Positions 1 through 41,790 of a stretch of DNA of 64,000 bases are shown piece by piece. A model generated the notes under the pieces. It saw nothing but the letters and a program-made list of their open reading frames with translations. It was not told the origin of the DNA and did no database searches. Source of the DNA: Blasia pusilla. Its lineage: Eukaryota. Positions within the stretch are counted from its first letter, which is position 1. Each line of letters starts with the position of its first letter. The stretch spans positions 2,108,001 to 2,172,000 of the forward strand of contig CM114271.1 in assembly GCA_050084515.1 (NCBI GenBank), read 5' to 3'. The position numbers were made by a program, and so were the translations under genes.

Positions 1-1954
1 CTCTTTGTACTTCCCCTCAATCGCATGTTTCCTCCACCACCCATGAATTTCTTCTTGGCATTCCATGGCCTCTTTCAAGGTTTTGCTATCCTTGCAGCGT
101 TGGAGTAGAGTGACATGCTCTGTCCTCTTATTCTCCTTGATGCAAGATTTGCTGTAGTGGGTCATAGATTGTTGACAATGGAAAGCATCCAACCTTTCTC
201 TCTTCGGTTGAACCTCCCCACCCCAAAACACTTCCCTGATAGCAATCCACCCAGGTTGTGCATTGTCCGCCATGAACCCATAAATTTCCGGAGGTGGCCT
301 TTTTTTTTCCTTCACCACCTCCAATAAGAGTAACCAACACATCTTCAAACTGCCAACGTCTTCTGCTTTTACTTCACAGAAAAATATAGTTTTGAGTCCC
401 TTCTCCACATAGTCATAAACCTGAGCACCCATTGTCAACCATCCGTTCAGCACTCTGTAGCAAATATCAAAGCTTACCCAGCTCCCGTAAAGATCTTCCC
501 CTTCCCTCATTCGATCTATAAGATCGAGGCCACTCGACGGACCTGTCATTGACATTTTGAAGTCATAGGCCGTGGATCCTTCGCCTCCCTGGCCCATGAA
601 CTGCCATCTCTAAATGAATGGAAATCTGGAGTTTGCCCTGATTATTGCAATGGCATCCATTCCGGCCCTCTTTCCATCTAGTACCTGTATTTGACTCAGC
701 AAATTCCGGAAGCATTCAGGATCAGCGAGAGATGCGAGATTTTCCCAGAGTTGTTTCTCCTCAACAACCGTGATCTCGCCTTGTCTAGGGATTCCAAGAA
801 ATTGTTCACAAATTTGTGATGTTGTTGTTAGCTTGATCACTCCAAGCTTTGAACCCGAGAGTTTCTGAAGACCTCGGCCACTTTCTTCGCCACATCCTCC
901 TTGATGTGTCTCTCAATTGCATCGATCACAGGATGAGTGTGGGAGCCAACATGAACTACTAGCCTTGTGTACTCTGACGTGGAGCCCAAGTCGTGGACAA
1001 TGAAAAATATGTATGCAGGACACGCTCCAACGCAAAAAGGGGATGCTTGACAATTAGGTCATCGATGGCCTCCCGGAGGTATGGTGGCATCAACCTCATA
1101 TGGAGTTTATGCATTCTTGGGGGGGAATTGCGACATATTGACCTGCCCGTTGCACTCTAGATAGGGGCATGCTAGACTTCTACACTCTAAGGCTCCAACA
1201 CATTGGCGGCGGGAGACAATCCAGGACCATCTAGAATTGAAGCACTAGTCCGTTAAAGCCTGCACCATCGATGACAATCAGACTTTCTGTCCATACCCTT
1301 CAAGCGTCCTCCATCTTTCTTTTGAGCAGGAGCAGCAAGTGGAGGCAACTCAAAAATATAATTACCATCGTACGTGGACGGCAACTCGTCGAAAAGAATG
1401 TGCTTGAACATTTTCAAGGCGAGAGACGATAGCAAACTATTGCCTGATACTCGTAAGAGGAATGAGTAGGCGGACAGAGGGCCCGGTTGGTGTCCGACCG
1501 ATCCACTGAGGTTGACAACAGCGGGAATTTCTTCAGGAAGTACAACATTGTAACGAACGTGTGAAGTTGGAGTCAATGTCGGATCTATTGAGCTAGGAGT
1601 TGCAAACGTAGAGCTCGGTGCATTAGGAAATTCTCGACCGTCTACTTGGGAAACTAAGGAATTCAGAGGCAAGCCGTAAACTCTGTATTGACCATTTGCT
1701 AGAGGTAGGAGATTCCATACTTTACGGTCTTCAATCACTGGCTGGATTGTCTCACCTATTATGTCCTCCGTACCATCCACCCTAACATCCTTAGACACAA
1801 AGATGGTTCCAATTGGGAGAAGAAATCGAACTGAGAGAAAATTTTCATCCACTGGTATGAAAGACTCACGAGCTTGCGGTCGAATGATTTTGGATTGAGG
1901 AAGGGCCGCTAGATGACTGCCACAAGTGAGCTTCACATAGTTGTCCATTCCCAA
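1..1954 (-). pseudogene. MULE/Mutator-family DDE transposase, disrupted, 3' part runs off window
   Basis: Manual translation of 609->1 is open: WVSFD (D at 466-468) ICYRVLNGWLTMGAQVYD..TIFFCEVKAE..YGFMADNA (D at 265-267)..RERLDAFH. This matches the MULE D..D..CxxH layout. Upstream lie FELPP..GMD..HRW, a Cys-rich segment and VHVGSHTHP (GCM/WRKY-like Zn domain). There is an in-frame TAG at 610-612 and frameshifts. Confidence 0.8.
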
Positions 1955-2020
1955 AAGATTCCACTAGGAGGAGACAGAGAATAAGAATGAGGATAAGAGT
2001 GGGTATGGGAATGAGAATGT

Positions 2021-2030
2021 CCAATTTATA
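2021..2030 (-). promoter_or_regulatory. Putative TATA box of the transposase gene
   Basis: TATAAATTGG on the - strand about 70 bp upstream of the transposase ORF, followed by a CT-rich leader. Confidence 0.4.
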
Positions 2031-2441
2031 GTGAATAGGGACTCAGATTCTCCTGATAGAATTTGACTGACAAGATGAAGTTTGGTAGGTGAGATTGTCT
2101 AACATGATGGGTTTAATTCTGTTGCAACCTGTCAGAGTCCGATGGGTTGCAGAATTTGGGAATCAGAGACGTGGGTTGCGAAGCACCCAGTTCCGTTTTT
2201 TTTTTCCTTGTCCCAATGCAAATTGGAAGCTGTCGGAGTTGGTTGGGTTGGTACCCCCTTCATGCCGACCAATGGTCTTTTGAGACGATTTTGCTAGCAT
2301 CAAACACGAGACATCGCTTGCATTTGCTAAGGTAACTAATTGTTGGGGACTGTTACGGGATTGTCCAACTCAGGGTAGACCTTGGGTACCCGCGCGACCC
2401 ATTGAGGATTACAAGAGGTTACCCGAGGGATAGAAAAGAGT

Positions 2442-2735
2442 GCAACGTGTCTGTAACTGATGAGTTGCCTAGGTACCTTGCCTATTACCCCAAGATGAGG
2501 GAAGCGTGCAACCCGTCGGCCTGCGATAGGTTGCGCAAGTGCCTCGCCTTGTAATGCTTACATGAAGGAAGCGTGCAAATCGTCGGCCTCCGACGAGTTG
2601 CATAGGTACCCCGCCTTGTTATCCCAAGACGAGGGAAGGGTGCAACCCGTCAGTCTTCGATGGGTCGCGCGGGTACCTTGCGTTCTTCCCCCAAGACGGC
2701 GGAGGCGCGCAACCTTTCAGACTCCGACGGGTTGC
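2442..2735. repeat. ~67-bp tandem array (about 4.5 units), each unit carrying the 27-bp palindrome
   Basis: Palindrome-like copies begin at 2442, 2508, 2575, 2642 and 2709. Confidence 0.85.
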
Positions 2736-2878
2736 TTGGATAGTTCGGCTATGACGGATGCCTCCAACCGGTCGGAGACCGTCGGGTTGTGGTTTTCACG
2801 TCTAGACCTCCATAACGGCCTACACGTTGCCGTCGGAACGACGATGCGATCCAATGGTCAGTACAACGGCTAAAAAAT

Positions 2879-2886
2879 TATAAATA
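2879..2886 (+). promoter_or_regulatory. Putative TATA box of the ParB-MTase cargo gene
   Basis: TATAAATA about 190 bp upstream of the ATG at 3076, followed by a telo-box-like TAGGGTTT. Confidence 0.45.
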
Positions 2887-3075
2887 GGCTAGGGTTTGCT
2901 CATTTCAGGTTTTCTGTTTCGCGATCTCGATTGCTCTTCAGCGCAGCAGCGGACCAGATACCAAGGGGCGCTTTACACGGCGACTCATCACGAGATGATT
3001 CAAGTGACTCATCAACGCGACTCATCGTGCACAGAAAGTAATTTCGTTGTCGAGGAGGTGGCATTTTCGGGAACA

Positions 3076-6000
3076 ATGACGAGGAAAAAAACTCAAGCAA
3101 GCAAGGTTGGGAGCTTCACTCCCAAGTCCATGACTCCTGCATCACCATCTCCAAGGCCTCGTTCGGCCAATGAGATAAGGCAGCAAGAGATCGAGGAGCG
3201 TGAAAGGGAAGCAGAGATGCACACACAGGAGCTTCTTGCAGAACGTGTTAAGGAGGCGATTGAAAAATAGAACGCAGAGGCTGAGGCGTCGCAGGCCTTG
3301 AAGAAAAGGATCTCCGAGGAGAAGCGTGAAAAGAAGCGTGTGGACGCGTCGGTGAGGAGAGCAGAATTGGAAAAAGCTTGAAGGAAAAAAGAGATTGCCA
3401 TTGAAGAAAGCTCGGCCCGTCCAACCAAAAGTGTTGAGATGAAGGAAATGTCTCCGATGAAGTCCGGGGACACAATCAATATAAAATCGGCTGAGGAAAC
3501 GGGCAAAGTTCAAGTGACGGACGATGAGGTCATGAGGACCGCCAGTGTGGAGATGGTGGATATCTCTGAAGAAGCAGGAGAGCGGTCTTCCTTGTCTCTT
3601 AGCCCGGCGGAAGAACATCGACCTCTATCGCATTGACGAGTTTCCACAGGACTTGCCAACTGCTATCCCAGACCAGTTGGCGTGCCAAGGCAACAACCCA
3701 ATCTTCGAGCGGGTAAGATACGATCTTTGTTCTTTGAGTTATGTGAAGGCCCATGTTGCAATTCATTGTAGTTTATTGACCTTTTCCCCGTTGTGACACG
3801 TGGTAAAGCAGATGGCACTGATGGAGGGCCAGAACGCCCCAAGAATTCCACTTTGCCGATTGCGGACAATGGAGTAGGTCCGCGAAATTCAGTCTGACGA
3901 GGATATTGCAAAGCTGAAATAATCGGCAACGACAACATCCTACGTTGACAGCTTCCCTCCGTTCTATGTCAACCTTACGATAAACATGGAACCCAAGCGC
4001 TGGTGACGGAGGAGGACTTGGAGGCGCTCGACACATTCTGGAGGATGAGAGATCAGGAATTCACAAGGGCGATTGAGGGGACGGAATTCAGCTGGATGCG
4101 GAACCTGTATTTCTTCATCTAGGATGGAAACCACAGGTTCATGGCATGGACCCAGTTTGCAAAGGAGCGCCAAAACTCATTGGAGGCGTATTTTTGCGTG
4201 AAGGCAGTCGTGCTACATCCATACCCTCATCACATGGCGACGGTGGAGATGGCCTTGCATACCATGAACACTTAAGTTTCCTCTTCCTTTATTTTGATTG
4301 GTGCTAACCGTTGGACTCCGACGAGTTGTTTAACTAGTGGTAACAAAACTCGTCGAAGTCCGACGAGTTGCTTGACTGGATGCTATTTTTTGGATGTTTT
4401 TGGCCGAATGCAACTCGTCGGAGTCCGACGAGTTTCTTGACTGAACGTTGTTTTTTGGATTTTTTTGGCCGAAAGCAACTCGTTGGAGTCCACGAGTTGC
4501 TTGACTGGCCGTTGTTTTTAGGATGTTCTTGGCCAAAAGCCACTCGTCGGAATCCGACAAGTTGCTCAACTGGCCGCTGTTTTAGGATGTTTTTGGTCGA
4601 AAGCAACTCGTCGGAGTCTGACGAGTTGCTTGACTGGCCGCTCTTTTTAGGATTTTTTGGCCGAAAGAAACTCGTCGGACTCCGACGGGTTACATTCGTC
4701 GGCATGGGAAGGTGATCGGAGTAGGGGAGCTTGATTTTTGGCGTCAAATTGCAGCTTTACTTGAAATTGCGCAACCTGTCCAACTTCGACAGGTTGATAT
4801 GTTCACTTTTCTCGCGAAGACCACTCTCTCAATACAAATTATCTGACAACCCGTCGGAGTCCGACGGGTTGAAACTAGGCAATCACAAATCTGAATGCAA
4901 TCCGTCGGACTTCGATGGGTTGCAAAATTTAGCTCGTAGCTACCATTCCAACCATGAGGTGTGACGACCTGTCGGAGTCTAACGGATTGCAGGAACCCAT
5001 ATAGCTCGCAAAATTTCTTATATTGAGTTTGGATGCGCAGGATTGTATCCGAGGGGAATGTCATCCACCATTGGATCCAAGATTGCGATCGGGTGAAGAA
5101 AGTGTTAACGACGCACCCGGCAGAGTACAAGGGGTTCTTGGGCAACGCCCTTGTAAATGAGATGCTAACGAAGGGGGCTCAATTTATTTTTTTTTAAAAG
5201 AAAGACTTGGGCAAATACATTTATTTCCCAAGATGCAGCCGTGACAATCCTTTGCTGGTCGAAGATAAAAGCCGCCAAGAAGAGCGCTTCATTGGAGCTG
5301 GAGCAGAGGGAGAAAATGTATGTGTCTGAGCATGCTAAGTTCATCCAAGCTGCAGTATCTGCAGTTACGAAGTACACTGCAAGCAAGATGCAGCGCTACA
5401 TTGCCATTCTCAACCCCAAACTTGGCCCCGATTTCTACAAGGAGCTGAAGGCGATAATCAAGTGCCAACGGAAGAGGGATGAAGATCCGCAAGGTCGGAT
5501 TGGGGAGAAAGTGTCTCTCGACCGCGTCCATCAATTTGCCTTGCCTGGAATTACGGAATTCAGGAGAATCCGACTGATGAAAATCAGTCTCGAGGGCACA
5601 GAGGCCCAAGAGAGGGCGGCACACCATCCTCTAGGTGTCTCTGATCCAATGATCTCCCACTGGCTCTCGTGAATGGTCATTCTGGGACGCGTTGCGGCTT
5701 CTCCGGAAGTCCATGCTCGTGGGTCTCTAAGCGGAGCTGAAAAAAATAGAGCCAATTTTGGAGGAAGCAAACCTGGAGAGTGCTGAAGATTTTGAACTTG
5801 GGCTAGATGACATGCGAGACAAGCCCATAAAAAACCCAGGCTTCAGGACGATGTTCAAGGATCACATCCTCCCTCAAGCAGACCTTGATGAAGAAATAGA
5901 GGCGAAGAAAAGGGATTTCGCAAAGAAAAAGCGAGATCTTCAGGAGCAGGCGGCCGATGTATCTTGAGTAAGAGCTGCCCAACGCATGGTGTTCAGACAC

Positions 6001-8208
6001 CTCGTCCATTGTAAGAATGCAGGTACGTGGCCAAAAATACCGGTAGCCTATAAATTGTGGGCTTCTCCGCCTGATGGAGAGACATTTTCCATGTACGACA
6101 TGGAGATGGCTCAAAGCATGTCCGACTGGGAGGTGGAGAATTGCCCGATGTGGCTGGACTTCAACAACCATGAGGACATAACCAAGAAAAATCTACGCGT
6201 GCTCTATGATGCAGTGGCCGCAGGTAGGGACGACATTCCCAATTTCGTGTAGCTTGAAGACTTTTTTGAAGGAGATACGGAGGAGCAACCCATCGAGACA
6301 GCGGAGTTGGTGTCCAAGGTCGTCACCGCCAAGGACAAATCTACAGCGGGTCTCAAAGCCAAGGCGAGGGGATCGAAGAATTCCGAGGCCGAGTCTTCCC
6401 AAAAAGAGGCTAAGAATTCAAGGCGAGAGGCGGAATCGTCCGGGCGAGCGGGGAGAGAGGGTCGGACCAGGTCCTCCGCAAAAAAAACTCCACCAGAGTG
6501 TGAGGTAATAGAGACCCCAATAAGCCGACCGCAGACTCGGGAGAAGCGGAAGCGAGAGGCGCCAGGTTTGTCCCACGGAGTAGACCAGGATGTGGAATAC
6601 ACTCCATCATCCTTGGGAAGACATAGGGAAACAACGACCCGGACAAGCGTCATCATTCACTGCACGAATCTTCTGGATGAGCTGAAAAGTTTCAGTTCCC
6701 AAGCATCGATACCCTCCATCGACAAATTGACAACGATGGGACGGAAGCTTCAACAAAATGGGCACGCTCCATGGACGGTCTATGGGGAGGTCGAGGAGGT
6801 GGCGATGGATCTCCTTGTCGCTGATTTTCCCTCGGGGTTGCGCTTGTGGGAGGAGAATCCGTCCGACGGTTTCCCAGACTGGAATGTCCCTCTTTCTTAT
6901 GACCAGATCGCGCTCCTGTTTTCCTTTGCATACGCTTATCTCAGTGACAGGGGCTGTTTCTTGGTTTTGACTGGAAGGAGCGAGGACGAGCTCTTCAACA
7001 TGCAGTGCGTCAAGAGGTTGCTGAAGTGGAGGACGGCGCAATCGTGGGTCATCAAGAACGAGTACCCACTCCGATCCGCGACGAGTCAAATTCGGGTAAG
7101 GGCTCTAAATCCATATCCAAATTTTCTTGCTCCAACTGGTTGCATCTCTGCATGCAACCCATCGGATTGTCTGAGCTGGAGACTTCGGTGGTGCAATCCG
7201 TCTAAAAGCGACGGCTTGCAAATTTACCGCAAGTCTCCATTGGGTGAATGCAACCCGACGGGTTGCAAGTGCTTATGCTTTTCCTTGTGTTTCTGGAATG
7301 ATGCAACCCGTTTGAATATGACGGGTTGCTCTTAGCCAACCATGGGCTGCTCTAAGCCAGCATTCTGCCGCCTTCCGACGGGTTGCTCATGGCAAAAAAA
7401 ATCACTAACACTTGTAAAACAACCCATTGGACTCCGAAAAGTTGCTCCAATGTTAGGACTATAACTAAGTTCTCTGGAGTTAAGCGAAGTTCTTTGGGAA
7501 CGAGTTGCACATTGTGTCACCATTCTGATAGTATACCTTTCTTGTTGTTGCATACTGAAATTAGCTCTTTCTTGTTGCTGACATTTTTTGCAACCTGCTT
7601 CTTTACACATGGACCACTCCTTTGTCTACTATTTTGTAAGGCCCAAGCACAACTTCCAAGTGTTTCAGATCCTCGATCCAGTGGATCCATGCTCTGATGG
7701 GTACAGCTTAGATAGTTTATACAATTCTCCCCCGAGAATTTACATGGAAAATGGTACCCCCTTACTTGGAGGAAGGGAAAATTTGTCGGCATTGATGCAA
7801 ACGCTCATTGAGCTCTGCTCAAGGCCGGGTGACTTGGTGTTCGACTTAGTGGGCCTTTCAGGGGCAAGTATCAGAGGCGCTTGGCAGAGTGGCAGGAACA
7901 TTCTCTACCTTGAGGGAAGGCAAGAACTGTTTGACCTTTGCAAAGAGGCAAAGGCAGATTACGACAGGCTAGTTGGGGCGTAAAACTCTCCTCCAAAGCC
8001 GATAGCTCTGGTTCCAGACCCACCATTGGTAGTGACACCATCGTCACTTCCCATGATTCCCATAATCGGGAGGGCAAGGCTGACAGTAATTCTGGAGGAG
8101 CTCTCAAACGATGACGAGTGAGTTCAAAGAACTCAAGGACCCAGCTTGACTATAGCATTTTGGAGTAGGGATTTATTTGATGACGAGGCAGAAGAATTCA
8201 TAGAATAG
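3076..8208 (+). pseudogene. Spliced cargo gene: coiled-coil N-terminus, ParB/Srx-like domain, helical region, beta-class N6/N4 DNA methyltransferase-like domain
   Basis: Inferred exons are about 3076-3712, 3812-4271, 5041-7095 and 7594-8208; two splice sites are mutated. Exon 2 reads IPLCRL..VR..FYV..FFI*DGNHRFMAW (DGNHR at 4123-4137). Exon 3 ends with MDLLVADFPSGL..PDWN..YAYLSDRGCFLVL (motif IV-like, 6805-6834). Exon 4 has LMQTLIELCSRPGDLVFDLVGLSGASIRGAWQSGRNILYLEGRQELF (motif X-I-II-like). ORFs at 5758, 5986 and 6307 share one frame broken by single TGA/TAG stops. Confidence 0.75.
4345..4693. repeat. ~64-bp tandem array (about 5.4 units) inside cargo intron 2, each unit with the palindrome
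   Basis: GCAACTCGTCGGAGTCCGACGAGTTGC-like copies at 4345, 4410, 4475, 4539, 4603 and 4667, with near-identical spacers. Confidence 0.9.
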
Positions 8209-9288
8209 ATCAAATATACAGTTCCGAGCTTCCTTTGGATGTAATAAAGAACAAGATTTTTTCAAACGATGGTGGTGTTTGTAAAAGTTTGTTGAATATC
8301 TTTTTTAGTCTTGTCGATTGTGATCGTCTATGTACTCCGACACTTCATATTGTAACCCGTCGGATTGCCACAGGTTGCAACTTTTCACTTTTTGACCACT
8401 GCACCTTTTTAACCACTTCTAGGCAACCTGTCGCATTCTGACAGGTTGGCTGTGTGAGTGATTGGACTCTTTCCCTGTTAGTCCAACTTTACAAACATTC
8501 TGGCGGACTTCTTCACTTTGGCACCTTCCCCTAGTTTCGTCAAACAAGTCTTAGGCTTCCTCTCTTCTCTAAGACGTGTTGGATTCCTACTACCTGGCTG
8601 AGGACATGATGGTGTCTCCAAGGACGGAGCACATATTGATACTAGATGGGTGTCACCTTGCAGAGCGTACAAGATTTATTGTCGAGGAAGGCGATGGGAC
8701 TCAAATCAGGTTACATGGGACCGTTATGGTGTACCTAGGGGGGTGCCAAGGCTCTCGAATTCGCCAACATTTTCGATCCCCGTCTACAATCGGCGAGAGG
8801 AGATCACAAATTGTATCTCAGGACATTCCTTTTGTACAGGAACCTAGGAGAGTAAGGTGTAAATTTGTAGATGACGAAGCTGAAGAAATCATGGACTAGA
8901 TCAAATGTACATTCCCGAGCTTCCTTCGGATGTAATACAGGACAAGATTTTTTCAAACGATAATGGTGTTTGTAAAATTTTGCTGAATATTTTTTTTGGA
9001 CTTGTCGATTGTGTTCGTCTAGCTACTCAGAATGTTTATTTTGCAACCCGTCTGACTCCGATGGGTTGCAACTTTTCACTTTTTCACCAGTGCAACTTTT
9101 TAACCATTTCCAGGCAAGCTGTCGGATTCTGACAGGTTGGCTGCTTGAGTGATCATACTCTTTCCCTATGAGACCAACTTCTGAGGCATTGTGGCGGGCT
9201 TCTTCACTTTTGGCTTGTTCCCCTAGTATTGTCAAACCAGTTGTAGGCTTCTTTTCTTCTCTAAGACATGTTGGATTCCTATTGCCTG
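8171..9288 (+). repeat. ~425-bp direct duplication (8171-8597 / 8862-9288) of the cargo gene's last codons and 3' region
   Basis: FDDEAEEFIE* versus VDDEAEEIMD*, then collinear sequence at an offset of about 691 bp, including two palindromes per copy. Confidence 0.85.
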
Positions 9289-9959
9289 TCGGATTGCCAT
9301 TTCGAATTCCCAACGAGTTGGATCTTCGTGAATGCAGGGTGGAATGGAATCACTTCTCAAAATCTTTCCTTTGTTATGGTGAGCTTGCTTGCAAGGGGTG
9401 CAAGCCATCTGATTCGGACGGGTTGCAAGAGTTGCAACCTGTAAAATTCCGACGGATTGGGAGGGGTGCAGCTTCTCGGTTTCTCATATTTAGGATCTGA
9501 ATGAAGGGACATCAATTCCTCTTTACTCCAGACAGCTAACAATCTGTTGGTTCAATTATCGTCTTCTGTGTTCACATTTCACAAAAATGGTCTTTATTTG
9601 AACCTTTCATTGAGATGAGATTGCTACTTCTGGTCACAATATTTGCCAATGGTCCTCCAAAAAAAAAAGCCCTGGGCACAGCTTACTGTAGACTGAGACA
9701 GGCAATGTGAAAAAACTTAGGCTCACATGGAGAGTGATGGGAAAATGTTTGTAGTGGTCTTATGATATCTACTAGTTTTTCGCCCCCTGGAAAAAGGAGG
9801 TTTCTTTAGGCCCAAACGTGGACCACTACCTACTCTCTTCTAAAGATTTCATAAATTTGAAAGCAAACAAAAATTTCAAATATGTCAAAAAGTTTTGAAG
9901 AGAGGAGGCGGATTTGGCCCTTTTTTTTGAAGAGAGACTCTCCTCTCTTCCTCTCTCCT

Positions 9960-11980
9960 ACCAGAATACCAGCCCTCCTCCTAAACTCATGGTAATCATC
10001 CATGGGTGGTCCCTCCAAGTGCTGAAACAACCGCTTCCAAGCCAAGAAGGGTGTAAACAATGTGGCGTTCCGCAACATCTGCATATCATTCCACGTATCA
10101 AACTCCTGAATGAAGTCCTCCAACTCAATGGTGCCCACTACACCCAATTATCGTCATGGGCCCTTCATGGCCCCATACATCCCGTCCATGTCCCAAATCA
10201 ATGGAGCTGCAACACTCGATAACAACGTAGAAGACTTGGTGTTTGGAACACCCTCGTCCTCCTCTTCATCAACCGTCGGAAGTGGAAAAGGTAGCTGATA
10301 CCTCAATCCACTCCGTGTAAAACCACCACTGTCCGCACCACGGTCCCCAACCAGGTCACCAGACAGCTTCGTGATGACCAACGCCGATGTCGCACCACCA
10401 CCAAATCACCACCACTAAGTAACCAAGTGACGTCGATGTCGATGTACTATTCTAGCTCTACTAGCTATGGGTGTGGGCAACCTAACCTATCATCACCACA
10501 AGAAGCCTCCCACGGTCTACTCGTCATCACTCCAGTCTCACTGTGAGAGAAACAAATGAAGTTTGACTGGTCATCACTCCAACCTCACTACCCGTAGCAC
10601 ACAGGAGTAAAACTACTCTGGAAATCAGCATCAGCCCTAACAATGGGCGCCCAAGCAAGAAGCAATGATGGAGGGGATCCAAATACATGAAGTCCAACAA
10701 CAACCCTCCAATCGCAACTGGAAGTACAAAATGAAAATCAAGGTAACACAATCCACCAAACGTGGTGCCCCCTCAATCCACAGAACCAACCACACAATTC
10801 TAACGCAATGGTTACTCTGCCGGTGGTCGATGACGTGCTAGTCGCACTTGCAACACCTGAAAATATCACCTGCATAGAGAGTCCACACCGTACTATGCGC
10901 TAGAGGTCCATCAACCAAAAACCCGAGATGCATAAAAGCGCCTAATGCATCTCCAAATAACACCAAATGAGCTACATCAGTGTGTACACTGACATAGTTA
11001 AGTACTCAGCAGTTAAGCATCTTCCAGGCAGAATAGCCCAAAGATGGGTGACCAGTTATGCAACACTCAACTCACAAATCCTGCAAAAACTGCCTCACGC
11101 CCAAGCAAGCAAGCTTGCTTGCGCCTTGCTCCTTGCTCCTTACTTCGCCTCAAACGCCCACTCGCCCCGAGCTACCACGAGTTGCCTCGAAGCCTCGAAA
11201 CAACATGCTCGAGACATGCCCGTTCTTGCCCCGTTCGCCACGCTTTGCTATGGAGAGAGGCCCAGACAGGGCGCCTCCAACGGGATAGGCGTCTCCAACA
11301 ACAGACGAGTCACCAACCAACCAGCCCCTCCGATCTGCTGTCCACCATAGCCACACCTTGAGCTAGTCCGCAAAATTTTGACCAACGATAACTCCACAAA
11401 TCCTCGACCAAAATTGAATCTATTTCAACGAGAATTCAATTGGTCACCATATTCCATACATGCGTATTGGCAACATCGCAAGCACAATGGGTGCTAGAGA
11501 GCGGGATCGGATGTTGTGCGAATCCACATCGTCATACAACATACATCGTTGACATACCAGACTCACATACATACATAACATAGAGGAGAGCATACACAAA
11601 CACAAGTGTACCACAACTGAAATCCGTGAAAGATTCTATACGTGTGTAAAACACGTATAGAATCACATACAATCGAGCCAAACCCACTCCACGATGGGAG
11701 AATCCAGGTCGAAGCTTTCGAAAACCACCATAGCCAAGAGCTCTACTCACTACCAAGGCTAACTCCCAACGCAACACGCTCAACTCAAAGAACTAACTGT
11801 TCTTTGAGTACACTCCACACTATACCCTCCAACCTAAGGGTGGGCCCTATTGGAAAAGTCACCCTCAACGGAGTAACCCCCAACCCTATGTATGAAACCG
11901 CATCCCTACCTACACACTAAGGCCCTACATAAGGTATGACCTCTACTAGCACACTATACTCTATGACATAATCCGTATGG
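9960..11980 (-). mobile_element. Ty3/gypsy remnant: LTR-like segment (~11530-11980), leader and gag fragment
   Basis: Gag-like ELEDFIQEFDTW..FTPFLAWKRLFQHLEGPPMDDYHEF at 9970-10147. The stretch 11530-11720 is reverse-complement similar to LTR sequence at 14050-14280. Boundaries are approximate. Confidence 0.5.
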
Positions 11981-18129: not shown

Positions 18130-18965
18130 ATCTCTCTCTCTCACAATTGCAACCAGGGCGCTGGGTCTATGGTCGCAAGGCTACAACAGGCACTACTTAA
18201 TGAGTACAGTCTCTCACAATTGCAACAACTGCGATAACCTCAGACTAGAGTTCCCTGATAGAGCTAGCTCATCCAAGGCCCTACCTTCATGGGTCTATGG
18301 TCGCGAGGCCACGACATGCACTACTTAATGAGTACTCTCTCTCTCTCAAAATTGCAACAACTGCGATAACATCAGATTAGAGTTCCCTGATAGAACTAGC
18401 TCTTCCAAGGCCCTGCCCTCATTGGTCTATGGTCGCAAGGCTACGACAGGCACTACTTAATGAGTACACACACTCTCTCTCTATCCATTGGGGATCCCAA
18501 TCAGGTAAAGTAAATAGTGTGGTGAAGAGTTTCTTGGCTGACACTTGGAAGCTCCGCACCGACACGTTGTTCGGTCAGCACTCACACTTTATGAGAGTGT
18601 CTCCCTCCTCTCATATGGTACCTTCTTCACTTGCTCCTTTCTCTACACCCATCCCAGTCTCAAGCACGGGGCGCGGGGTCTATGGTCGCAAGGCTTCGAC
18701 AGGTACTACTTAATGAGTACTCTCTCTCTCTCTCTTTCTGAGAGTGTCTCCCTCCTCTCATATGGTACCTTCTTCACTTGCTTCTCTCTCTACACCCATC
18801 CCAGTCTCAAGCACCGTCCAACCAGGGCGCGGGGTCTATGGTCGCAAGGCTACGACAGGCACTACTTAATGAGTAGTGTCTCTCAAAATTGCAACAACTG
18901 CGATAACATGAGACTAGAGTACCCTGATAGAGCTAGCTCTTCCAAGGCCCTACGCTCATGGTCAT
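18130..18965 (+). repeat. Modular repeat array (~130-bp units) interleaved with a dispersed, probably LINE-3'-end-derived fragment
   Basis: GGTCTATGGTCGCAAGGCTACGACAGGCACTACTTAATGAGTAC-like module occurs five times (about 18163, 18291, 18424, 18677, 18832). 18510-18640 is similar to the reverse complement of 33100-33220. Confidence 0.8.
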
Positions 18966-31867: not shown

Positions 31868-32481
31868 TTAAATCCAAGAGATATGATGATAATTTGCACT
31901 GCCTAGTGTGGGGACAATTGGATGATCAAGGCAATAGATCATGAATCTGGTCTCATTATGTGCAACATGACGGCAAGATTCTCTACCATGTGCAAAACCT
32001 TCTTCCTTGCTCGCTACTAGGCAACCCGGATGCCATGCCTTGGGACATCTCAAACATTGGATGGCATTTGCCAGATGCTTGTCACAATGCAACATGTTGC
32101 ATGCCACACGTGTATGAAGGGAGCAAGACTGCACATCAAGTGGCAAGCATCCATGATAAAAGAAGCGAACACAGAAAGGTTAGGGGCACTCTCTGATTTA
32201 GTTTGAATGGAAGCCATTGTGCCACACTTAAAACATTTGTATATCCCCGAGGTACACTCAGGACAATACCAAGGGTCGCACACCTTGTCCTCTGGAATGA
32301 CCACGGCACGGCAATGAGACACCGTATGGCCAACTTTGTGACCATGGTGAAATTTTCGATGGCAAGGCCCATCACAAATCACTAGATCTCCATGGAAATC
32401 GCAAATAGCACACAAATGGGGACTGAATTGTCGCAACTCAATGTCTGAGAACAAGGGGATTTGTAGCAACCTCTTGCTCAT
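31868..32481 (-). pseudogene. EDM2-like tandem PHD-finger module, frameshifted/internally shortened
   Basis: CAICDFHGDLVICDGPCHRKFH..WYCPEC..KCFKCG, then in another frame CSLH..CLRCPKAWHPGCL..FMIYCLDHPIVPTLG..HI. This matches the EDM2/NSD-type PHD pattern and its IYC..H.I...LG...HI tail. Confidence 0.65.
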
Positions 32482-33592
32482 GTTCTTCCTAGTGTGTGGA
32501 TTATTTTTGGCTTGCCGCTTGTACCTTATCGTTATGGCTATTGGACATTGAATTAGTTATAACAATATAGAGGATATAGGCATGTACAATTTTAGACAAA
32601 ATAAATGACTTAAAAATCATTTGCCCAGATCTTAGACAAATATCTACTTTCGAGAAACTAAACTAGTCGACAACATAACTCATGGCAAATATTTAAAAAT
32701 TTATGATATTTTAATACCTTGATCAGGTCTTCATTGGGGTCACACCAATTGTACCCTTGAAAGAGATCAGACTTAATATAGAAACAGGTGAGTGGTCGGC
32801 CCTATCTAGTTACCAAAGTTACCATCACACCCATCTTGGAATCTAATCAGAGTAAATGGTTGATTAGCTGAGGCTAGGCTAGTGCAAGTCTGGTCCTCCA
32901 TTCTACAGTAATATTCCCTTCCCAGATTGAATCGAACGTAAGAGTTCCTTTAATGAGACAGGGAAGTGTTTCTCACATATCTTCTACGAGAAGCGAAGGA
33001 ATTTAGAGAGATCTAGCAATCGGGTTGCATTTGGCACTTTCAAACTCTATTTCTTACCATTCCCCGGGTACTCAACATGGATAAGTTTAGAGAGAAGAAC
33101 AAGGGAAGAAGATACCAGATCAGAGGAGGAAGACTCTCATAAAGAGCGGTTGCTGACTATAGAGGATATTAGAGCAAAGCTTCCAAGCATCAAGCAAGAA
33201 GCTCTTTGCAACACTACTTAGCTCAGCTGATTGATATCCCCCAACATATGTTCAAGCGATGAACAATTTTGGTGTGTTTAGCTTAGTAATTTCAGCATAG
33301 GCGTTTGCGTTCAGGTTACTCAACAAGACAAGAAAGGTGACATGTGGTTGTATGAGAATCAAATTCCTCTTCTATAAGTATGCAGGGTCTTAATATAAGG
33401 ATTCACAAGTAGTAGTCCAGGCGGCGTTGGCGATGGTGCTGCCCCACATCCGCGACGATTCCTCCAAGAAGTCCGCGGAGAAGAGAGTAAGCGACACTAG
33501 CTTCCACAATAGCCAGCACATGCTGGAATGCTTGTATAGCGTGGTCTCCCTATAGAGAGGAATTCATAAGAATGATGAGAAAGGCGCATCTC

Positions 33593-33780
<188 letters not shown>

Positions 33781-35040
33781 ACTGGAAAAATTGGAGAGGT
33801 TCGTCGCTCCAAAACAAGAGCAACGATTTCTCTGGCCTGCGAGTTTATTGAATGGAGAAAAAAGCTTGTCCACCACCAGCAAAGTGTTGATAACCATTCG
33901 CGAGCGCGCACGATAAATTCAATAAACTATAGCGCGCATCTTGAAATGTTCAGAAGTTGTAAGACCGAGATGAGTTGCAAATAGATTCAAATGAATAGTT
34001 CGAATGAAAGAAAAAAACACTAAGCAAAAAAAGTGGAGAGATAGGAAAACTGCGTACCAAATTTTGATACGAATACGAGCCTACTACAACGCATGCAACC
34101 TGCTTGTTGCGCTTGCTCAATCTTTGATTGGTGGCTAAGCTCGATGGTAGTCTTCAACCCTAAACCTCGGAATAAGGGGGAAACCAAAGGGGAAACCAAA
34201 CGCGGGAAAAGTGAGGAATATCTCATAGAATTGCAAATGATTTTTTTTTATCTAAGGAACCTAATTTATATTATATTAAGTTTTCAATATATATAGGTTT
34301 GAAAAGTATAGCATTGAATAAATGAAAAGTGGAAAAATCTTATGCAAACACATGTTAGATGTATTTTGCGAGTATAATCCCTATCTTATTTTAACATCTT
34401 CCATGGAAGGAGGACTAAAAAAAAGGACCATGTTGTTCTTTTAAGAGCGCCATGGAATAAATTGATGCCTATTGTTCTTCCACAAAACTTAATAAGTCTT
34501 CTGATGGATGCAATTAAAAAACCGCTTACTTTGTCGCACGTGATGGGGTATTTTTGTGGAAGTGAGACCCCCCGAGTTTTCGGTGGGTCTCCATCACTAT
34601 GAGGTTGTCTAATCCTATTCCGTATTCCATGTTAAAAAGTAAGTTAGAAATAAGATCTCTATCGAAATACTTCCTTTGCAAAATTTCCCCACGTTCAATA
34701 GTAGAAGTTAGGTCTTCAACTTACAAAAGCCAACCGAGAAGTCCTTGTCCTACTATTGTTGGGTTGTAAGGAGTTTTGGGATGTTGCTCTTCATTGGCGC
34801 TCATAAACTTCAAGCATTCAACGTGCCCCCTTAGAAATACTGCATGAGAATTTGAAATGTAACCCTACCATAGAAATTGCTTACATTTCTTGAATCTTGA
34901 AGTGATGGCAATTAAGTATCCTATCTGGATAAATGGGGATGGAAAATGGATCATGGAATGGTAGGCACCTTTCCTTTGGAAAAATGAATTGGGAAACTTG
35001 GTCTCCTCTACCACCTTGTCTCTCCCATTGCATCAAGAAG

Positions 35041-36548: not shown

Positions 36549-39500
36549 TGTGGAAAACTGCTAAACAAGCATAATTGGTGGAAAACGGCTCTCACACATA
36601 CACCCCACCATGGAGAACGAAATTTGCAATGAGAGAATGAGTGGAGGCTGGTTCCCTTCTCAATTATATAGGGTATGTACAAGCAAACCTAACCTTAACC
36701 TTAACCATAGTCTCGAGTTAGACTAACTGTGATTAACTAACCTAGTTAAGATAATGTGTTTTAGCCTGACTAACCAAGATTAAGCTTTCCTACTTAGTTG
36801 AGTACCAAATATAGATTCAGGTGTCTCATGATTGTAACTCAATCTTCAATACTCCCCCTCAAGCTCATATCAATATCTGTAACACCTAAATCATTTTTAA
36901 ACATCTCAAACTTATCTCTAGACAATGCCTTTGTAAAGATGTCATCAATTTGCTTATGATTATTAGCAAGCTTGATGCTACTAATTTTTTCTGCATATAT
37001 TACACTAGGTCCTAAGTTACTAACACCAATCTTAACAAGTAATCGATGAAGCCACACCGCCTCACATGCTGCATGAGTTGCTCCTCTGTACTTAGCCTCT
37101 GTTCAAGATAAAGCAACTATAGGTTGCTTCTTTGAAGCCCAACTTATAGCTGCGCTTCCCAAAATAAATGAGTAACCAGATGTGGAGTGTCGATCACACA
37201 TATTTCTTGCCCAATCAGCATAAGTGTATCCCTGTAATTGAAAACTCATAGAAGGTTCAAATTGAAGCCCGAATTGAATAGAGAATTTTAAATACCGCAT
37301 AATCCTCCTCACGGCATCAAGGTGAGGTTTTCGAGGTGCTTGCATAAACTGGCTCACTAGGCCAACAACATAGCTCAAATCTGGTCTGGTTATAGTTAGA
37401 TAGATTAAACTTCCAACCATGCGCTTGTATATATTAGAATCTGCAAGCAACTCTCCTTCATCCACTCTTAGCTTCACACTCTGGTCCAACGGTGTAGAGA
37501 TTGGCTTACAAGCCGTCATACCATATTTTGAAAGCATATGAAGAGCATATTATCGTTGTAGTAACCACATGCTCTCTCCAACCTTGATAAACTCTATATC
37601 AAGGAAGTACTTGAGTTCTCCCAAGTCCTTCATATCAAATTCTGCTTGTAACTTAAGCTTGACTTATTGTACCATTTCTTCAATACTGCCAGTAATCAGG
37701 AGATCGTCAATATACAACACAATGAGAACTGTATGATCTTTTCCTCTCAAGAAATATAACCAGGAGTGAGAATCACATACCCTAAAACCCAATTCTTGTA
37801 GGACCTATGTAATCTTGCCATACCAAGCTCTTGGAGCTTGTTTGAGTCCGTATAGAGCTTTCTTCAACCTGCATACGCGAAATGGAAACTTGGGATGCTC
37901 GTATCGAGGTGGTTGAGTCATATATACCTCCTCGTATAGATCTCCATTCAAGAAGGAATTCTTGACGTCCATCTAATATAATCTCCACTTCTTACTTACT
38001 GCAACTGCAACCACTGTTGTCATAGTCGCCATCTTTGCAACAGGGCTAAATGTTTCTTCATAATCAATGCCATATTGTTGTGCATAGCCCTTAGCCACCA
38101 ATCTCGCTTTGTATCTATTAATTGTACCATCTTGATTACGCTTGATTTTGTAAACCCATTTGTAACCAATAGCTTCCTTACCATAAGGTATATCAACCAG
38201 CTCCTATGTCTGTTGATGTCTTAATTCAGCAAGCTCTTCCTCCATAGCTTCAATCCATTCGACTTTACTTGCAGCTTCTTCAAAGCATTTCGGCTCTTGT
38301 TCTTGAAGGGTAGTCATTATATATGCATGATGTATCACAAAAAAACCTTCATTTATGAATCTATGAAGTGGATGTATAACTCTACTTGATCTACGAAGTT
38401 GTTGTTTAGAGGTAGATGTCTCTGACATTTGACTCGAGCTTTGACTAGTGTCAACACATTGAATACGTACGCTTCCCATCCATGGACTCATAGATTTAAC
38501 TGATGAATCTAGGACCTCTCCTAATCCTGCACTAGTACTTGGGGGAGTTGAAGATAATGTCTGTCGGTTTACAATCATATTCTCCCCCTCAATAGACGAG
38601 TTTAGAGGTAGAATAGGCTCAGATGGAGCATACCATGACTTTAGCTCATCAAAGACAACATCCCGACTAATAATAAGCTTCCTAAATGATCGAATGTAGC
38701 ACTTGTACCCCTTAGTTCCATCAGCATAGCCAATGAAGATACATTTTTCAGACTTATTTTCAGACTAATTTTTGACGTATCTCTGAAGGAACATGGGCAT
38801 AACAAATACAACCAAATATTTTCAAGAAAGAAAAATCAGGCTTACTTCTTGTGAAGACTTCAAATGGAGTTTTATCATGAACTCCTGTTGTTGGAGTTCG
38901 GTTGATTAAGAAGAGTGCACATGCTATAGCCTCTGCCCAATACACCTTAGGCATGTTCTTCTCATTTAGCATAGCTCGTGCCGCTTCAGCAATATGTCGA
39001 TTCTTCCTCTCAACCACTCTATTTTTTTGTGGAGTGTAACGGCAAGTCACTTGACGTTGGATGCCATTCTGAAGTAAATAGTCATCAAACTCTGTTGAAA
39101 GATACTCTCCTCCTCCATCACAACGCAATTTCAGAATGTGTTCTCTAGTCTACTTCTCTACTAGAACTCTGAATGTTTGGAACACTGAGAATACCTCTGA
39201 CTTGGCTTTTAGAAAGTATACCCATATATACTTAGAGAAGTCATCAATAAATGAAATAAAGTACTGGTAATCTCTAAGGCTATGTTGTGATGCCTTCCAC
39301 ACATCAATATGGATCAACTCCAATATCATGGATGCTCTTCTTCCTTGCTTAGGAAAAGGAAATCTAGCTTGTTTTCCAAATTGGCAAGCAAGACATACCT
39401 CTAACGTAACAGGACTTGCTAATTTTAGGGAGTCCTATTACTATATTAGATGATGAAAGACTCTGTAATCTTTGAAGATTCATATGTCCAATTCTTTTAT

Positions 39501-41790
39501 GCCACATTTAGATCTGTGACTTGTTGGCCGGTTTGACCATACATTTATGTTTGAATCTCTGGCATAGAAATATCTAATTTGAGTATTCTGCCACATCAAG
39601 TTCCTTTGGCTATCATAGTCTAATCATCCATTTTTTCAATGAAACAACCATCTGCGTTAAACTTCACTTTCAAGAGCACAAAATGTTTAAACTGCATTAA
39701 ACATTGTCAAGAGCACAAAGACCATCAAATGCTATTGGAACTTTACCGGTATGCGTGATATGATGTTGAGTGTCATCTCTTATGAGCACAATTGCAAGAT
39801 CTTTCATCGGCTCCAAACTACTGAACCATTGAGCTTGTGAGATCATGTGATTTGATGCACCAGAGTCAATGTACCAATCTACTGTCGAGTCTTTCTTGAC
39901 CATTGCTCCCATATGATGATTCTTGGAAGTGGAAGTGGGAAGTGGTGTATTAATTAAAAAAATTAGATTTGATTTTCTCTTTGTGATTTTTTTAGTCATG
40001 ACCAAGAGATGCTCCGTTTGTGAATGTTGTTGTTCTTGGTATTGCTCTTGGTGTTGTTGCTCCACATAGTTTTATTGTTGTAAGGCTCCTGTTCTCATAT
40101 CTGCCTTCTTCTTGAAGCAAAGCTTTGCATAGTGACCCTTTATCGCACAGTAATTGCAAGATCCAGGGACCCTCTGCTGTTGACCTCCACCCCAACGGTT
40201 TCCACCATCATCACCTTGTGATTCTGTTTGGTACCGGTTAGTAGTTGAATGAGTGACGTTATATTGAGTCCCTTTTCCTCCATATGCTTGATATCCACCA
40301 TGACCACGGAAGTTTCTATCACGACCCCTGCCTCTGTTTAATTTATAACCTGCAAATAGTGCACTCTCTTGCAGACTAGACGAGCTATCGCTGCCTACTA
40401 GACGTATCTCTTCATTGATTAACAGAGGCACTAACTCTTGAAAGGTTGGATACTTCTCTCTCACAGAGATAGAGGTCTCAAAGGACTTATAATCTTTTGG
40501 AAGGCCTTGAAGAGTGAACAAAATCAGATCATCATCTTCTACTGTCACTCCAATGATATTCAATTGATCAACAATATGTCTGATACTCAAAATATAATCA
40601 TTGATGCTCTACGATTCTTTCCTCACTTCGTTCAATTGATGTTTCAATTGAAGCTTTCTGGTCTTTGTAGATGTCTGGAACAACTTTTCCAATGCATCCC
40701 AGGTCTCCTTCGAAATATCAACATCTTGAATGTAACCTATTATTGGCGAACTGATCGTTATTGAAATATGGTGGATTACTTGTCTTTCGCGTTTATTCCA
40801 GACGCAAACATTCAAGTCTTTTGAGTCACCTTCTCGCTTGGCCTTATCATCTGTGACAAGCTCCCATAGTTCTTGACCCATGAGAAATTGTTTCATGTGA
40901 AACTTCCAGACGTTGTAATTCTGCTTATCTAGCTTCTCGCCTGTGATTGTTGTTGAGGAATACTCCATGACGAATGATTTCACTTACAAAAATGTAATTT
41001 CAGGATCTCCTACTGGTCCAATTGAAGCATAGATCATTCCTACACAGAAATTGACCTGAAATTTTCCAAAATTGATCAAATGTATGAAAGAACTAGTCGA
41101 AATTGGCCTGTAGAGAGCAAACTCCACAACTTTTCTTCACTAATTGCACTTTCCTACATTGAAATTGCTACAGCAAGAGCTGAGAATGTCAGAATCGAGC
41201 AATTTTGGATGCGTTGGAAAGCTCTTGGCGAGCTCTACAAGAAGGCTAAAATAAGACCTAGATGCTGTTCTAGCTACTGCGGACCCAGATGGCTTAATCG
41301 AATGGAAAAGCCTTCAAAAATACCTCAAAGTTTTTATCACCGTAAAAGCTCCACCTGAAATCTACACCCACTGAGCTCTGAATAAAACTTCCTACTCCCA
41401 AACTGAAAATTTCTCCTTCTCTTGCCTCTCTTCTCTCCTCAAACACCAAGGATTTCAAGTGATGTTCTCCTATTGCTCTGATACCATGTGGAAAATTGCT
41501 AAACAAGCATAACTGGTGGAAAATGACTCTCACACACACATCCCACCATGGAGAACGAAATTTGCAATGAGAGAATGAGTGGAGGCTGGTCCCCTTCTTA
41601 ATTATATGTACAAGCAACCCTAACCCTAACCTTCACCATAGTCTCGAGTTAGGCTTCTTATGATTAACTAACCCTAGTTAAGATAATCGTGCTTAACTGA
41701 CTAACCAAGATTAACTTCCCTATTTCGTGTGAGTACCAAATATAGGAGTTCAGATGTCTCATGAGTTTGATTGTAACTCAATCTTCAATA
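36549..41790 (-). mobile_element. Full-length, decayed Ty1/copia LTR retrotransposon
   Basis: LTRs at 36549-36851 and 41487-41790. TSD GATTA at 36544-36548 and 41791-41795. PBS TGGTATCAGAGCA (41474-41486, iMet type) and PPT GAGGGGGAG (36852-36860). Order gag (CNYC..GH...C), protease (WYIDSGASNHM), integrase (RCDGGGEY), RT (GSLIYLTITRPDL), RNaseH. Confidence 0.97.

Follow-up and report, generated by a model that had tools for sequence, protein, structure and literature searches.

The stretch analysed here, hereafter the window, comprises 64,000 nucleotides of the Blasia pusilla genome (GenBank assembly GCA_050084515.1, contig CM114271.1, positions 2,108,001 to 2,172,000, forward strand), and it carries, in its first 10 kb, a broken methylase-like gene that belongs to a highly repeated family. 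The + strand reads ATG GAT CTC CTT GTC GCT GAT TTT CCC TCG GGG at 6805–6837 (window coordinates throughout), which translates as M-DLLVADFPSG. The stretch DLLVADFPSG (6808–6837, + strand, with DFPS at 6823–6834) resembles motif IV of an amino-methyltransferase and aligns to ADLIILDQPYN and ADLIIIDTPFD, respectively, of the Ceratodon purpureus (moss) proteins KC19_7G101700 (P0011) and M758_1G295400 (P0012), which UniRef names 'DNA methylase N-4/N-6 domain-containing'. It sits within a stop-to-stop frame of 6253–7335, in which GTAAGG directly follows the codon ending at 7095. Downstream on the same strand, the motif I-like stretch PGDLVFDLVGLSGAS..YLE occupies 7834–7914, as part of PGDLVFDLVGLSGAS...NILYLEG in an open reading frame (ORF) of 7582–7983 that has the same frame as DLLVADFPSG and ends in TAA at 7981–7983; the frame that reopens at 7582 contains ...GGRENLSALMQTLIELCSRPGDLVFDLVGLSGASIRGAWQSGRNILYLEGRQELFD.... 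The first-pass annotation had described exactly this arrangement, with a motif IV-like element ahead of a motif I-like one and an intron from 7096 splitting the domain. Both points hold: the two elements follow each other in one frame, GTAAGG stands at 7096, and 275 genomic reads depart from the window sequence after position 7101.

The gene is predicted to span about 3797–8121 on the + strand, and the two motif-bearing halves would form its C-terminal part; it reaches further upstream than the first-pass annotation had described, to about 3797, and includes an N-terminal domain with the motif DGNHR. This N-terminal domain is encoded by one or more exons at 3797–4272, homologous to residues 226–382 of P0012, which run in two frames with three in-frame stops (..YFFI*DGNHRFMAW..). 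An intron or insert with a tandem array (about 4273–5168) separates it from a long exon (5169–7095), which holds a poorly conserved central region and then the N half of the methyltransferase-like domain (about 6610–7095; its motif IV-bearing reading frame is called exon 1 below). The intron that follows (7096–7608) has the donor GTAAGG, differs in content between copies and holds extra, palindrome-bearing DNA at about 7102–7400. The last exon (exon 2, 7609–7980) carries the C half of the domain, with a motif X helix, the motif I-like DLVGLSGAS (residues D79–S87 of the exon, 7843–7869) and the motif II glutamate of YLEG (7912–7914). The TAA at 7981–7983 is private to the window copy, and an ORF in the same frame (7984–8121) extends the reading frame past it, to 8121.

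The larger gene became visible by comparison with the moss proteins. A tblastn search with P0012 placed residues 226–382 at 3800–4269 (+ strand; E 1e-13 as the sum of two pieces, 33% identity, two frames and three in-frame stops), where ..YFFI*DGNHRFMAW.. faces FYVWDGNHRLVAW of the moss protein, and residues 1062–1118 at 7762–7932 (E 8e-8); the segment 5169–5669 aligns to residues 415–517 (E 0.041). When a profile of the moss proteins was run with hmmsearch over the 1639 ORFs of the window, 5 of the 6 best matches, including the top three, fell on the + strand within 3797–7980 and in protein order, with E values of 9.5e-4 for 4123–4272 and 0.1 for 3949–4119. The pieces between 3797 and 7980 are colinear with P0012, and we therefore read the locus as one gene of about 4.3 kb. 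On this alignment, an intact family protein would comprise the N-terminal DGNHR domain, a long and poorly conserved middle and a C-terminal, permuted methyltransferase-like domain.

Exon 2 matches the Pfam family N6_N4_Mtase (PF01555) with an E value of 0.0067 over profile positions 169–220 of 221, at 16.8–16.9 bits, which is under the gathering cut-off of 26.7 bits for this family. It also matches four DNA methyltransferase families of PHROG (E 1.2e-4, 2.7e-4, 2e-3 and 0.33), a DNA methyltransferase family of NCBIfam (E 0.14) and, in the PDB, M.RsrI (E 0.13) and DpnA (E 0.7). Judged by these profile comparisons, the score from any single library is weak, yet all libraries agree on the family and on the region, and the resemblance to methyltransferases exceeds chance. 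An exhaustive HMMER search of exon 2 against 1.84 billion representative sequences returned six matches at E<=0.001. Four are short ORFs from metagenome assemblies (112–203 amino acids), aligned over motifs X to I at 35–41% identity; the remaining two were set aside as spurious, both being repetitive proteins, with 22 and 6 matched stretches. Among relatives of the metagenome type, P0007 was seen on 20 contigs and P0008 on 15, and one of their cluster members bears the name 'DNA modification methylase'.

To this we add the evidence from an alignment of window exon 2 with seven relatives (A1), in which seven of the eight members match PF01555 (best E 7.6e-6). Searched against the PDB, the A1 family profile found DpnA (5hek) with an E value of 1.7e-4, and against longer proteins it found P0011 (661 amino acids, E 6.6e-47) and P0012 (1147 amino acids, E 3e-42). 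Both moss proteins exceed the PF01555 cut-off, P0011 at 35 bits and P0012 at 30.4 bits, the latter through residues 903–1119 over profile positions 2–217 of 221. Since the moss homologues pass the cut-off, P0012 over nearly the whole profile, the family is best regarded as a genuine PF01555 offshoot. The earlier proposal of a relative of the beta-class, that is permuted, N6/N4 amino-methyltransferases is thus supported through the homologues, at the level of sequence similarity. The nearest solved relatives found were the N6-adenine enzymes DpnA, CcrM and RsrI. A chance resemblance with no methyltransferase ancestry would fit the window's own scores, which lie under the curated cut-offs, and the lack of a profile match for exon 1; the convergence of independent libraries on the same family and region, the homologues that score above the Pfam cut-off over the full profile and the colinearity across 4 kb make it hardly credible.

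Several other searches returned nothing further. Word-based searches found no homologue for the exon 1 ORF among proteins of near length and none for exon 2 among longer ones. A scan of metagenome loci with A1 gave 76 pattern-matching stretches and a scan of viral contigs 18, none of which was confirmed; a metagenome scan with the relative P0009 gave a lone confirmed locus (L001), which we discarded as a bacterial contig with a chance match to HFFGIEAD.

In exon 1, DLLVADFPS...GCFLVL aligns pairwise to residues 417–472 of P0011 (E 0.002) and 903–988 of P0012 (E 0.079), and in shuffle controls the observed scores were reached by 1 of 2000 and 19 of 2000 shuffled sequences. Residue 903 of P0012, where DLIIID.. 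begins, corresponds to PF01555 profile position 2; via P0012, DLLVADFPSG is thereby placed at position 2 and exon 2 at 169–220, which is the permuted order. A global alignment of the spliced window product with the two moss domains is colinear, with 22/101 and 24/101 identical residues in the exon 1 part and 35/120 and 34/122 in the exon 2 part. We take exon 1 as the motif IV half because the weak pairwise alignments fall at the correct place, because of the shuffle controls and because of this colinearity. Protein language-model (ESM) features give a lead in the same direction, the clusters nearest to exon 1 being methyltransferases (0.85–0.88).

When the two domain halves were modelled as two chains, the score was 0.49 against 0.01 for the best control, which may be taken as weak support; contact agreement between runs was at least 77% and the partner's predicted local distance difference test score (pLDDT) at least 57. 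The mark applied to such models is passed by 51 of 78 solved complexes and by 2 of 108 mismatched pairs, and passes at 0.60 or under came from only 5 of those 78 complexes and from all 4 passing mismatches (of 180). Halves of one domain may moreover pass through likeness to solved methylases.

The motifs themselves depart from those of working enzymes. The catalytic tetrad of beta-class enzymes is (D/N/S)-P-P-(Y/F/W), and their S-adenosylmethionine (SAM) loop is D-P-F-x-G-x-G-T-T; to our knowledge, the second proline of motif IV and the first glycine of FxGxG are near-invariant in characterised enzymes. Motif IV reads DQPY in P0011, DTPF in P0012 and DFPS in the window, none of which fits the tetrad, and the deviation appears to be graded, with the window lineage the most degenerate. 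Further along, where DpnA has HPTQKS, the moss proteins have GPHEKS and the window has GGRENL. Their SAM-loop regions are VVVDLAASTGASLRACRASGRHYFGIEE (moss) and LVFDLVGLSGASIRGAWQSGRNILYLEG (window), and that of the metagenome ORFs is alike. Motif I itself is DLVGLSGAS in the window and DL[A/S/T][A/S][S/L]TGAS in the seven relatives and the two moss proteins, so that a family motif DLxASTGAS, conserved across the family, stands where DPFxGSGTT is expected. HMMER aligns DLtastgAs to DPFMGSGTT of DpnA; thus the proline, the aromatic residue and the first glycine are replaced family-wide, and the aspartate, the second glycine and the motif II glutamate are kept. The motif II acid is E102 (7912–7914), aligned to the glutamate of FIGIE in DpnA, and the exon 2 residues invariant in A1 are V77, D79, L80, A86, S87, S94 and E102. 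The motif I deviation is common to the moss proteins and the metagenome ORFs and is therefore old and conserved. The family appears to descend from PF01555 enzymes while having a non-canonical SAM loop and a non-canonical catalytic tetrad, D[Q/T/F]P[Y/F/S].

An alternative motif IV was considered in NSPP (7723–7734) and rejected: it lies only about 20 residues ahead of the motif X helix, its HMMER stretch score is -2.8, and it aligns to the family-conserved linker N..xP.

Such motifs bear directly on whether the family could still encode a working amino-methyltransferase of DNA (or RNA), one in which SAM loop and tetrad are unusual; intact copies would then write N6-methyladenine (6mA) or N4-methylcytosine (4mC) on the element or the host, and the window copy would simply be dead. 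The moss homologues score above the PF01555 cut-off and keep a D..P[Y/F] motif IV, the P..KS of an HPTQKP-like motif, the second glycine of GxG and the motif II glutamate; the strong conservation of the non-canonical motif I implies selection, and a variant copy is transcribed, as described below. Against this, the near-invariant second proline of motif IV and first glycine of FxGxG are replaced family-wide, the aromatic residue of motif I is gone family-wide, and the window lineage has in addition lost the aromatic residue of motif IV (to serine) and the HPTQKP-like motif (GGRENL). We consider an active enzyme rather unlikely.

Comparison with solved and described enzymes places the window gene at some distance from all of them. 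DpnA (5hek/5hfj), M.RsrI (1eg2/1nw8) and CcrM (6pbd) share with it the order of motif IV before motif I and an alignable X–I–II region with the aspartate before the SAM loop, the second glycine and the motif II glutamate; unlike these enzymes, it lacks DPPY, FxGxG and HPTQKP, is interrupted by an intron, lies in a eukaryotic repeat and encodes a long N-terminal extension. The Marchantia genes DN4MT1a/b and the bdelloid N4CMT are, as far as their available descriptions go, likewise eukaryotic genes derived from beta-class PF01555 enzymes of bacterial origin; compared by description, they are active, low-copy host genes, whereas the window family is high-copy, degenerate and multi-domain. The accessible parts of the sources present DN4MT1 as free of additional domains at either terminus (PMC8885841; DN4MT1 preprint) and N4CMT as carrying a chromodomain and having no eukaryotic homologues (PMC8885841). 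The first-pass annotation had suggested a mobile relative or source of such enzymes; these published descriptions argue against a close link of either to the window family.

The two moss proteins are much nearer. Like the window gene, they combine a DGNHR N-terminal domain, a long middle and a C-terminal PF01555-like domain, all colinear, and they share the odd motif I (DLxxSxGAS) and the same split point between the domain halves. Identity between moss and window is 22–24% in the N half and 40–43% over the final 57 residues. DQPY or DTPF together with GPHEKS are retained in the moss proteins, whereas the window has DFPS and GGRENL; and, unlike them, the window gene is a broken member of a family that numbers roughly hundreds of copies.

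The copy number and the state of the window copy were read from three RNA runs and one genomic run labelled Blasia pusilla, placed on positions 1–10000 at a likeness of at least 90%. About 1% of the genomic run gave 29,339 reads on these 10 kb, and just 97 of them matched at a likeness of at least 99%, from which it follows that the genome holds roughly hundreds of diverged copies. DNA depth, with both directions summed, was 560–1180 over 1–2004 and about 80–510 elsewhere. The window copy is a pseudogene, with in-frame stops and frameshifts: its long exon has stops at 5728–5730, 5965–5967 and 6250–6252 and is broken by an extra base at 5667, which is absent from 141 of 167 DNA reads. At 7983, A>C (TAC for TAA) was found in 475/493 DNA reads and 17/17 RNA reads; most copies thus have TAC at 7981–7983, and the family frame continues to 8121. 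The segment 2737–4845 is missing from some copies (28 reads). As to the 275 DNA reads that leave the window sequence after 7101, they show that conservation stops right after GTAAGG and that the window intron has extra, palindrome-bearing DNA. The first-pass annotation had placed the domain in a plant transposon and had left open whether its deviant motifs were fixed or decayed. The setting is indeed that of a highly repeated, transposon-like unit, and both descriptions of the motifs apply, the deviation of motif I being family-wide and the window copy further decayed by stops and frameshifts.

A minority variant copy of the repeat family is transcribed. RNA of the + strand covers 7609 to about 9018 at a depth of 3–14 in all three RNA runs (a first mate on the - strand was taken as + strand RNA, as in usual stranded libraries). 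Just before 7609 the RNA reads have loose ends (9 reads in run X17 and 11 in X19), the letters of which continue the frame as ..GHTTYNE|MDHSF.. and by eye resemble ..HHPRFDDM|LTFTF.. of the moss protein at the same junction; a 30-letter loose end before 7609 had no counterpart within the window. The metagenome ORFs begin at the position equivalent to the exon start at 7609, and the moss proteins are colinear with the window across the exon junction. AC, not AG, precedes 7609 in the window, and in-frame AGs occur at 7646–7647 and 7667–7668; the end of the intron is better placed at 7608/7609 than at an in-frame AG. Variants carried by the RNA are rare in DNA (7673 T>C in 6/139, 7717 T>C in 7/143 and 8084 C>G in 1/202 DNA reads). 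The expressed variant also has 7674G and 7719C, next to 7673C and 7717C. One or a few particular copies are therefore the source of the transcripts, and their upstream exon is too diverged to be placed on the window.

The 3' flank of the gene (8179–9169) contains a duplication spaced by 691 bp (300 nt at 84% identity and an 85-nt pair). Many DNA and RNA reads run from 8130/8175 straight to 8617; about 440–490 bases of the flank are thus absent from other copies, the expressed one among them.

The unit is further marked by a 27-bp palindrome, GCAACCCGTCGGAGTCCGACGGGTTGC, which together with its variants occurs within the window only at 2130–9420. Its core has 17 matches in the window against 0.52 expected, and none of 100 shuffles reached 17. 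Two tandem arrays flank the N-terminal domain exon. One, at 2459–2735 (67 bp x 4.1), carries the palindrome GCAACCCGTCGG..CCGACGGGTTGC in each unit; the other, at 4347–4691 (64 bp x 5.4; Tandem Repeats Finder score 480, 84% matches), is also made of palindrome-bearing units, lies directly downstream of the exon and is probably intronic. In the genomic reads we observed many strand-switch joints at palindrome sites and some copies without the DNA between the two arrays (2737–4845).

The N-terminal domain itself (P0012 200–470) matched no Pfam family at E<=10, and a PDB search returned no ParB chain. In ESM feature space, residues 215–400 of P0012 lie nearest to clusters of DUF3723 (0.96, with 187–188 of 256 shared), and DGxHR is presumably a ParB-type motif; the domain had no profile match to ParBc or DUF3723. 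We treat a ParB/DUF3723-like nature of the DGNHR domain as a lead only.

From these data, the explanation that we favour, and hold to be probable, is that a multi-domain gene, part of a high-copy, transposon-like repeat, is present in the window as a pseudogenised copy, and that the intact product would be an accessory protein with an impaired methylase-like module. An intact family protein would then act as the accessory protein of the element and not as a conventional modification enzyme, methyl transfer having been lost or strongly altered. It would bind the element's own DNA, for which the arrays of the 27-bp palindrome beside the N-terminal exon are candidate sites, and the bound protein would protect or mark the DNA of the element against host silencing.

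Few transposons carry non-transposase genes; examples are VANC of VANDAL elements, fungal KDZ elements with TET/JBP and the PAG genes of red algae. The last of these offer the closest parallel. In the available text on Bostrychia moritziana, giant Plavaka elements, and also Mutator and Zisupton elements, are described as carrying PAG2 (PF01555 and SET) and PAG3 (a ParB-like N-terminus and a 2-oxoglutarate oxygenase), with tandem inverted-repeat arrays adjoining PAG3; in the authors' proposal, the encoded protein attaches to the element it comes from and modifies it, and they cite VANDAL as the sole transposons known to do so (10.1101/2025.02.11.637652). As far as that text goes, the window family shares with these elements the PF01555-type and, if the label is right, the ParB-like domain, as well as inverted-repeat arrays beside the ParB-like gene; most copies of the red-algal elements are degenerate and weakly expressed (10.1101/2025.02.11.637652). 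Compared by description, it differs in carrying both domain types in one polypeptide (if the N-terminal one is ParB-like), in having neither SET nor oxygenase, and in its land-plant-type genome. By this analogy, the window family would be a variant of the kind recently described in red algae.

The repeated setting could also have arisen if a host gene, in part or whole, had been multiplied through capture by an unrelated transposon or through segmental duplication, and had since decayed neutrally. In their annotation, the moss relatives are ordinary hypothetical genes, no transposase is recognised alongside the window gene, most copies are 5–10% diverged with the window copy broken, and the expressed variant is a small minority of the copies, all of which would suit such a history. 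It accounts poorly for a unit that is repeated whole, from the N-terminal domain to the 3' flank and with the palindrome arrays and the neighbouring gene, as judged by depth and joints; the relatives in metagenomes lie on many contigs (20 for P0007, 15 for P0008), and red-algal transposons carry accessory genes of the same two domain types. We regard this history as improbable.

Several observations weigh against the accessory-protein explanation. The conserved odd motif I together with the retained motif II acid could equally represent a working, unusual SAM site, and among the 40 variants listed, of 1151 variant rows, none fell within 6808–6837, the segment that encodes DLLVADFPSG. Exon 1 alone has no match in Pfam, PHROG or NCBIfam, gave no match up to E 10 when the moss profile was run over the 1639 ORFs, and is only 22–24% identical to the moss proteins. 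AlphaFold models of each half alone were poor (pLDDT 47.1 with an 8-row alignment and 40.5 with a single sequence), which leaves the fold a prediction from sequence. The ParB/DUF3723 label draws on language-model features and the DGNHR motif, with no hidden Markov model or PDB match at E<=10. Since palindromes are also present in DNA missing from most copies (7102–7400), they may be a small mobile repeat of their own instead of binding sites. Finally, Pfam, PHROG and the PDB revealed no transposase family among the ORFs next to the gene, and the word 'transposon' rests on copy number and context.

Two further systems of mobile DNA invite comparison. DUF3723 is described, in the part of the report available, as a conserved accessory gene of fungal Starship elements (10.1101/2021.12.13.472469). 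Starship DUF3723 and residues 215–400 of P0012 are nearest by language-model features and would both be conserved non-transposase genes of mobile elements; Starships, as described there, are fungal tyrosine-recombinase elements, and the moss domain had no match to Pfam DUF3723 at E<=10. The methylase domain of the DIRS1 retrotransposon was judged inactive (Iyer et al. 2016, PMC4738411), and in the accessible text of that study a methylase family of the window type is not mentioned. Like the module discussed here, the DIRS1 domain is transposon-borne, has substituted catalytic and substrate-binding residues and is proposed to act by binding (PMC4738411). Unlike it, going by the same text, DIRS1 has a domain of the PCIF1-like clade and not of PF01555, within a retroelement polyprotein and not as a separate gene of a DNA element. 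No publication on a PF01555 or ParB-like gene carried by a land-plant transposon came up, in a search with thin coverage of subscription journals and with Repbase outside it.

A bolder extension of the accessory-protein explanation, which we put forward as a speculation more likely wrong than right by a wide measure, is that land-plant transposons carry a self-recognition protein in which a ParB/DUF3723-like clamp is joined to a re-purposed PF01555 domain. Such a protein would load onto the palindrome arrays and shield or mark its element, with the same toolkit as PAG2/PAG3 and perhaps Starship DUF3723. If true, transposon accessory genes would seem to form an ancient, pan-eukaryotic set with its origin in phage ParB–methylase systems.

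The best clues to the manipulation of host epigenetic silencing by mobile DNA come from transposons with extra genes, and a land-plant repeat family that encodes a methylase-derived protein beside palindrome arrays would extend this theme from red algae. Such a family would offer a testable pair, the methylase-derived protein and the 27-bp palindrome. It also advises caution in surveys of 'bacterial' 4mC or 6mA methylases: PF01555 matches in bryophyte-type genomes can be transposon-borne and motif-degenerate, and do not demonstrate that 4mC or 6mA is written there.

Upstream of the gene and divergent from it, a neighbouring broken gene on the - strand occupies 1–1963 and is cut by the start of the window. 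No other part of the repeat is as abundant (depth 560–1180), and the gene is transcribed, RNA reads over 1–1963 being mostly oriented opposite to those over exon 2. At 856 and 1222 most copies have one base more than the window. By eye only, this gene shows a Cys/His cluster (about 840–1244) and a D...D...CxxH-like or DDE transposase pattern; its minus-strand ORFs gave no Pfam match at E values up to 10, no PHROG match and no meaningful PDB match.

Between the two arrays, a 36-base stretch at 3857–3893 was matched by 34–49 RNA reads per run, both ends of which run into unrelated sequence; the match probably reflects brief similarity to an abundant transcript encoded elsewhere. Further into the window, pieces of a copia-type long terminal repeat retrotransposon lie at 37100–40610 (- strand), with gag (PF14223, E 1.2e-10) and SH3-like integrase (PF25597, E 1.2e-15) matches at 38.2–40.6 kb, and a separate reverse transcriptase fragment lies at 43784–44470 (+ strand; RVT_1, E 3e-5). 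ORFs with PHD fingers were found at 57597–58079 (+) and 32050–32556 (-) (PF00628, E 1.4e-8; NSD-like PHD, E 7.7e-4). A long simple repeat of the (GAGA/RE)n type at 33556–33984 is read as a RERERE... ORF, and a cluster of direct repeats of 60–143 nt (D5, D6, D10 and D12), unrelated to the methylase-like gene, occupies 18130–18960.

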